From the sequence record ON782582.1: 64,000 nucleotides of DNA; one strand, given 5' to 3'. The notes under the pieces were generated by a model. That model worked only from the letters and a program-made list of their open reading frames with translations. It was not told the origin of the DNA and did no database searches. Below are positions 20,067 through 20,840 of this stretch, in pieces (the stretch's first letter is position 1; every line of letters begins with the position of its first letter). The DNA comes from Escherichia phage ECP52. The position numbers and the translations under genes were made by a program.

Positions 20067-20840
20067 TTAAATCCAGGAACCGTAGATCGTGCCTGTTGCA
20101 CCCCATGATGGTGAAGAACCAAATACCGCTCTACCTGGAGCACCACCGCCGGATCTAGATAAGTGATTACCCCATCCATCTCCACCCCGGCCTCCAGCAT
20201 CACCGCCATTGCCTCCGCCGAATTGGGAAGTGTAACCGGCACCGCCCGGGGCGTCATAACTAGCATTACCACCCGGCCAATTAACGCCGCCTCCGCCGAT
20301 GCCAAATGGTCTACCACCACCGCCACCTGCTGTAGCATTTGGCGCCCAGCTATTCTGTAATGACACTGCACCACCACCGCCGCCGCCTGATGCAATAACG
20401 CCATAGTTCCAAATACGAAGTCTTCCGCCGATATCATTTTGGATTACATCGCCGCCATTTGTGCCTGGGTTTCCGTTTACAGTACCGTTACCACCTCGTC
20501 CCCACATATGAACTCCACCATGAATATTCAAAGTAACATATTCATTTGGAGTATCGCCATACATAAAGAATAAAGGAACATCTTTAGAATATGATACTAA
20601 ATCTCCAGTGATATTAAACACTATAGGTGCACTACCTGCCTCAAAACATCTATCTCGGAACCATTGACCATTGAAGTTATGGTCCGCTCCAAGGGTGTGA
20701 ATTACTTCAACAGATCGACCTATCATATTACTCATCCAAAACGGAATTCCCATTCTCAATCTCTGCGCGGCACCACCCATCCAAGGGTCTCCAGTTTGTA
20801 CCCTCGCAGACCATCCTACCCACGGTCCTTCAACTGCCAT
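20067..20840 (-). CDS. 38: gp38 long-tail-fiber adhesin, T2 type with glycine-rich motifs, 257 aa
   Basis: Starts [10 protein letters not shown] with GGAGG RBS (track ORF is extended to an upstream ATG); multiple poly-Gly islands ([33 protein letters not shown]). Confidence 0.85.

Follow-up and report, generated by a model that had tools for sequence, protein, structure and literature searches.

Gene 38 of Escherichia phage ECP52 encodes a T2/S16-type adhesin with OmpF as its predicted receptor

Introduction

Which of the two proteins that go by the name gp38 is encoded downstream of gene 37 in Escherichia phage ECP52, and, if it is the adhesin, which receptor on the host cell does it recognise? 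A gp38 of the T4 type is a non-structural chaperone for the folding of gp37 that is absent from the virion, and the receptor is bound by the tip of gp37. A gp38 of the T2 type is itself the adhesin. Knowledge of this class of adhesins dates back to the 1980s, and structures were determined in 2018 and 2026. The legacy label "distal long tail fiber assembly catalyst" stands on the adhesin records of RB69, RB51, RB68, JS10, and T6; it is a persistent misannotation, a name taken over from T4. The GenBank record of RB69 itself carries the note that gp38 of the T2 subfamily is unrelated to the T4 type and is the adhesin.

Here, we analysed a stretch of 64,000 nucleotides from ECP52 (ON782582.1), referred to as the window. 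A sequence-only reading of this DNA had taken the product of the gene after gene 37 for a T2-type adhesin rather than a T4-type chaperone, and had placed the host-range determinant in gp38 and not in the tip of gp37. According to our analysis, gene 38 of this T-even phage almost certainly encodes a monomeric adhesin of the T2/S16 type that caps the long tail fibre and has OmpF as its predicted receptor. The literature already covers the class of adhesin with its structure and modular logic, and also the present allele. What is added here is the specific prediction of OmpF together with the coordinates of the functional parts, and no new biology.

Results and Discussion

The Gene 38 Locus

Gene 38 runs on the minus strand from an ATG at 20840-20838 to a TAA at 20069-20067 and comprises 257 codons plus the stop codon (Table 1), so that the ORF with this start yields exactly the 257 aa given in the sequence-only reading. 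The longest mechanical ORF at this place extends from an ATG at 20870 and would encode 267 aa (20067..20870). The ATG at 20840 is preferred because a GGAGG motif is located 5 nt upstream of it and because it agrees with the annotation of homologues, being the same start as in RB69, RB51, and FL31. The upstream ATG was rejected, as it lies inside a hairpin, has no ribosome-binding site, and contradicts all annotated homologues. Three overlapping ORFs, at 20060-20437 (minus strand), 20163-20360 (plus strand), and 20664-20891, were also discarded, since a GGN-rich sequence with few stop codons gives rise to such ORFs as by-products. The gene order g37-g38-t represents the canonical synteny and recurs in RB69, T2, T6, and AV119. 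A gap of 45 nt separates gene 38 from the holin gene t, and the late-promoter motif TATAAATA falls in this gap. A search of the window with ARAGORN found no tRNA genes.

The stem of the UUCG hairpin upstream of gene 38 is present in the minimum-free-energy fold. In RB69 and RB51 the hairpin is intact; T2 has a shorter stem, T4 and AV119 are short by one stem base, and the loop of T6 is different. The T4 hairpin is near-identical despite the T4 gene 38 being non-homologous. This element could function in mRNA stabilisation, or it could be a conserved joint for the exchange of cassettes.

Table 1. Features of the gene 37-38 region of ECP52 (window positions; aa and codons are counted from the start of the respective gene product).
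Feature	Position	Strand	Basis or remark
Holin gene t, downstream neighbour of gene 38	19365..20021	-	Pfam Phage_holin_T, 1e-116
TATAAATA, T4 late-promoter consensus	20040..20047	-	Motif in the corresponding position in T4 and RB69
Gene 38, 257-aa T2-type tail-fibre tip adhesin	20067..20840 (including stop)	-	ORF, translation, Pfam, PDB, RB69 match
C-terminal specificity domain, codons 116-257, Gly-rich motifs alternating with hypervariable segments	20070..20495	-	
Predicted receptor loop E, aa 223-229, WGNHLSR	20154..20174	-	Mapping via AR1
Predicted receptor loop D, aa 203-207, YTSQF, contains codon 206	20220..20234	-	Mapping via AR1
Predicted receptor loop C, aa 184-188, GGVNW	20277..20291	-	Mapping via AR1
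Predicted receptor loop B, aa 161-170	20331..20360	-	Mapping via AR1
Predicted receptor loop A, aa 120-125, TVNGNP	20466..20483	-	Mapping via AR1
N-terminal attachment domain, codons 1-40, predicted to dock on the gp37 trimer tip	20721..20840	-	Gp38_N
Shine-Dalgarno sequence GGAGG	20846..20850	-	5 nt spacer to gene 38 ATG
Hairpin GGGGC-UUCG-GCCCC, between gene 37 stop and gene 38 ribosome-binding site	20853..20866	-	Comparison and minimum-free-energy fold
Gene 37, 1104-aa distal long-tail-fibre subunit carrying gp38	20872..24186	-	Peptidase_S74, Gp34_trimer, 6F45_A (1.3e-44)
gp37 codons 994-1104, putative intramolecular chaperone that would be cut off once the trimer has formed	20875..21207	-	

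Family Membership and Domains of gp38

The gp38 of ECP52 matches the T2/S16 adhesin family over its whole length. Residues 45-257 cover the full profile of the Pfam family GP38 (PF05268; 4.1e-83), and residues 1-40 match Gp38_N (PF21721; 6.4e-20). Among solved structures, the receptor-binding domain of PP01 gp38 (PDB 9V85) was matched by residues 37-256 (7e-75), and the S16 gp38 from the gp37-gp38 complex (PDB 6F45_D) by residues 1-257, which is the full length of the protein (2e-47). Homology to these two crystal structures suggests that gp38 would fold as a beta-helix combined with a polyglycine-II sandwich; a single-sequence AlphaFold2 model of gp38 had a pLDDT of 30.3 and a pTM of 0.18, too low for use. 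In an alignment of 12 diverse adhesins, 37 glycine columns are invariant and the variable loops lie in between.

The N-terminal residues Trp7, Trp20, and Trp35 align with Trp7, Trp20, and Trp36 of S16 gp38, in which three conserved tryptophans of the N-terminal helices contact gp37 (PMC6851490). For the C-terminal half, the loop definitions of 9V85 (PMC12892980) were transferred by way of AR1, which served as a stand-in for PP01, and gave the five predicted receptor loops A-E. Codon 206 is CAA (Gln; 20223-20225), and nucleotide 617 of the gene is A.

Predicted Receptor

The sequence-only reading had proposed to derive the receptor class from the variable segments, and these segments point to OmpF. 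The protein was aligned with eleven reference adhesins, T2 and T6 among them, and the comparison was split at residue 116. Receptors other than OmpF alone were represented by AV119 for OmpA, T6 for Tsx, AR1 (for PP01) and S16 for OmpC, and T2 for FadL/OmpF. Identity to RB69 gp38 (AAP76154.1) amounts to 256 of 257 residues, and the sole change, D80N, is found in the conserved N-terminal half. Identities over the C-terminal part are listed in Table 2.

Table 2. Identity of reference adhesins to ECP52 gp38 over aa 116-257, and their published receptors.
Phage	Identity	Published receptor
RB69, RB51	100%	OmpF
FL31	99.3%	OmpF (weak phenotype)
fPS-90	98.6%	OmpF
FL33	96.5%	OmpF
T2	53%	FadL and OmpF
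AV119	51%	OmpA
AR1 (stand-in for PP01)	50%	OmpC
T6	47%	Tsx
S16	47%	OmpC

Because the specificity domain is identical to those of RB69 and RB51 and because position 206 is occupied by Gln, the primary receptor of this gp38 is predicted to be OmpF, and the prediction is founded entirely on identity to characterised alleles. OmpF is needed by RB69, RB51, and SV76, for which FhuA and a full LPS core are also implicated (PMC3157838), and fPS-2 and fPS-90 infect Yersinia by way of OmpF together with the LPS core (PMC7917993). Dependence on OmpF was also found for FL31, FL33, and FL34, with the plating of FL31 on an ompF deletion being reduced by only about one log (PMC12032242). A 2026 preprint assigned OmpF to RB51 by RB-TnSeq and reported that RB51 needs Gln206 for the use of OmpF and that the substitution Q206L, which falls in the third variable segment, redirects binding to OmpW (bioRxiv 10.64898/2026.04.02.716166).

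Alternatively, the protein could be a T2-type adhesin with another primary receptor, be it OmpW, FadL, FhuA, OmpC, or an LPS sugar. The effect of Q206L means that one loop substitution can switch the receptor (bioRxiv 10.64898/2026.04.02.716166), and gp38 of SV76 and T2 are only a few residues apart (PMC3157838). The weak ompF phenotype of FL31 (PMC12032242) and the reported need of RB69 and RB51 for FhuA (PMC3157838) point in the same direction, as does the resemblance of loops B, D, and E to their counterparts in T2, a phage with both FadL and OmpF as receptors. However, not a single amino acid in the range 116-257 differs from RB69 and RB51, Gln206 is retained, and independent studies on E. 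coli and Yersinia arrive at OmpF for this allele group. We consider a primary receptor other than OmpF to be very unlikely. The reported dependence of RB69 and RB51 on FhuA and the LPS core may be indirect.

Given that the plating of FL31 fell by only about one log on the ompF deletion despite a 99.3% identical specificity domain, there may be genetic backgrounds in which OmpF is not an absolute requirement. The predicted main route to resistance is the loss of ompF or ompR.

The deposited gene 38 of RB68 (KM607004.1, 61-834) translates into a protein identical to RB51 gp38, Gln206 included. The OmpW specificity of RB68 has been ascribed to Leu206 (bioRxiv 10.64898/2026.04.02.716166); at this residue, the GenBank entry apparently does not agree with the laboratory stock.

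Mosaicism and Selection

The region at positions 19092-25114 of the window, which holds the cassette, was set against its flanks. The flanking genes t, asiA, motA, and gene 52 share 96-98% identity with those of T4, T2, and AV119; the figure for RB69 is only 70-76%. The g37-g38 cassette is mostly 82-99% identical to RB69, and drops to 53-69% in patches at about 21770-22060 and 23260-23410. For the rest of the window, the best matches are Tequatrovirus genomes (95-98%). Because the flanks match Tequatrovirus and the cassette matches RB69, the region is, judged by these identities, an intergeneric mosaic of a known kind, with an RB69-like (Mosigvirus) fibre-tip cassette in a Tequatrovirus backbone. 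The OmpA phage AV119 has gp37 in common with the window, as well as gene 38 up to approximately codon 116; beyond position 20491 the two sequences part. This site, which coincides with the first Gly-rich motif, looks like a natural recombination junction between an attachment module and a specificity module. The swapping of modules at the gene 37-38 locus has already been documented (PMC3157838).

In gene 38, 27 codons differ between RB69 and the window. As these differences give only one amino-acid change, the codon pattern indicates a coding sequence under purifying selection. The protein of the specificity module is unchanged relative to RB69 and RB51 despite a nucleotide divergence of about 4%. 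A Nei-Gojobori estimate of dN/dS was set aside, because it gave two "nonsynonymous" differences in a domain whose protein sequences are identical, which we take for an effect of path averaging over codons with multiple changes; raw counts are used instead. A more far-reaching scenario, which we regard as unlikely, is that the OmpF module would be a frozen cassette that is kept under strong purifying selection, moves intact between genera, and serves phages of both Escherichia and Yersinia, with its joints at aa ~116 and at the UUCG hairpin. The FhuA dependence could then mean a second contact made by the same allele.

The Partner gp37 and the T4-Type Alternative

The gp37 that would carry this adhesin is also of the T2 type. 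Peptidase_S74 was matched at residues 994-1053, Gp34_trimer was matched as well, and the last 192 residues are similar to chain A of 6F45 (1.3e-44). The S74 chaperone is present in T2 gp37, whereas T4 gp37 instead has Collar and Phage_fiber tip domains, and these two domains were absent from the window's gp37 in the Pfam search. From residue 989 onward, the sequence DVYVR^SDIRVKKD aligns with the autocleavage site of S16 gp37 (DLNVS^SDRRIKK) and with the site described for the fPS phages (DVYIR^SDGRLKI; PMC7917993). We infer cleavage after Arg993, so that the mature protein would comprise 993 residues and the chaperone set free would have 111. A gp37 with a chaperone and a cleavage motif of the T2/S16 type fits a fibre that is capped by gp38.

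That gp38 might be a T4-type folding chaperone for a receptor-binding gp37 is suggested by its position after gene 37 and by the legacy "assembly catalyst" labels of RB69, JS10, and T6. In BLASTP searches, however, window gp38 showed no similarity to T4 gp38 (best E 1.3; no alignment longer than 14 residues), but 46% identity to T2 gp38 (1e-39) and 59% to T6 gp38 (3e-66). GP38 and Gp38_N both match T2 gp38, whereas T4 gp38 matches no Pfam family. Moreover, T4 gp37 has Collar and Phage_fiber where the window's gp37 has S74, and the quoted note in the RB69 record contradicts the label on that same record. We give the T4-type explanation practically no credence. The alignment that the sequence-only reading had suggested as a check thus separates T2, T6, and, with its 256/257 identity, RB69 clearly from T4, and the Pfam, PDB, and BLASTP results together bear out the assignment as an adhesin. 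Its placement of the host-range determinant in gp38 is backed by the S74 chaperone of gp37 and the lack of the T4 tip domains. The label "T2-type" stands with one refinement, as the closest relative is gp38 of RB69/RB51 and not that of T2 itself.

Residues ~701-900 of gp37 (window about 21490-22090) are 53-75% identical to RB69 and 64-80% to AV119, and identities outside this stretch are 82-100% in the same comparison. It forms a variable patch of its own in the shaft of the distal fibre and, divergent as it is from RB69, could modulate the host range.

Glycine Content and Composition

Glycine accounts for 65 of the 257 residues of gp38 (25.3%); its share rises from 13% in aa 1-115 to 35% in aa 116-257. 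By comparison, the 66 ORFs of the window with at least 100 aa have a median glycine content of 5.8%, and gp37 comes second to gp38 with 12.3%. The glycine enrichment of gp38 is far beyond chance. All four poly-glycine islands listed in the sequence-only reading were recovered in the translation, namely GGGGGGA at aa 152, GGGGGRP at 172, GIGGGG at 180, and a fourth at 208. We assign virtually no probability to the Gly-rich stretch being a low-complexity or repeat artefact instead of functional coding sequence: GC-rich GGN runs do yield long spurious ORFs (20060-20437 minus, 20163-20360 plus), but the frame of gene 38 is kept across hundreds of phages (839 records, tblastn), the divergence from RB69 is almost all synonymous, the 37 invariant glycine columns recur in all 12 adhesins, and Tandem Repeats Finder reported one trivial 15-bp match in gene 38 (20660-20674) and nothing in the Gly-rich half.

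The glycine codons of gene 38 are GGT (29), GGC (21), and GGA (15), GGG is used for none of the 65 residues, and the longest run of G is 4 nt. One possible effect of this is that the polymerase slips less often in poly-Gly tracts. In the C-terminal half of the gene, the GC content is 56%, compared with a window average of 36%.

Proposed Mechanism

Starting from the observed gene structure, family, allele identity, and T2-type gp37, the mechanism of the family, as known from homologous solved structures and genetics (PMC6851490, PMC3157838, PMC12892980), can be transferred to ECP52, and the fold of gp38, the cleavage of gp37, the location of gp38 in the virion, and the receptor would follow from this transfer. 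The trimerisation of gp37 would be assisted by its own C-terminal intramolecular chaperone, which would then be cut off after Arg993. The tip of the gp37 trimer exposed in this way would be capped by one gp38 monomer through its N-terminal, Trp-bearing attachment domain. The central beta-helix of gp38 would bear two long excursions, in which the Gly-rich motifs of the C-terminal half would adopt the form of polyglycine-II helices and stack as a rigid sandwich of three layers. At the distal end, the hypervariable segments would be exposed as beta-turn loops and make contact with the extracellular loops of the outer-membrane porin. A confident annotation of this kind from sequence only, which comprises a long tail fibre capped by gp38 and OmpF as the predicted receptor, is useful for cocktail design and host-range engineering.

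Comparison with Known Systems

The closest known systems are RB69, RB51, and RB68. Their gp38 proteins have the same length of 257 aa, the same gene position, and Gln206, and their gene 38 DNA is 96.3-96.5% identical to that of the window. The gp37 of the window is RB69-like over most of its length. The N-terminal 20 residues of gp38 match RB69 and AV119, but not RB51, from which they differ by six substitutions. T2 gp38, the prototype that uses FadL and OmpF, belongs to the same Pfam families as the window protein, and in both proteins Gly-rich and variable segments follow each other in the same order. T2 gp37 likewise contains an S74 domain, and loops B, D, and E of T2 gp38 are recognisably similar. 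Overall identity to T2 is nevertheless only 46-47%, and 39% in the N-terminal 115 residues. The adhesins of S16 (6F45) and PP01 (9V85) bind OmpC; their specificity domains, with AR1 standing in for PP01, are 47-50% identical to that of the window, and the variable loops differ. T4 gp38 (NP_049864.1), with 183 aa as compared to the 257 aa of the ECP52 protein, shares only the gene name, the position between gene 37 and t, and the near-identical UUCG hairpin.
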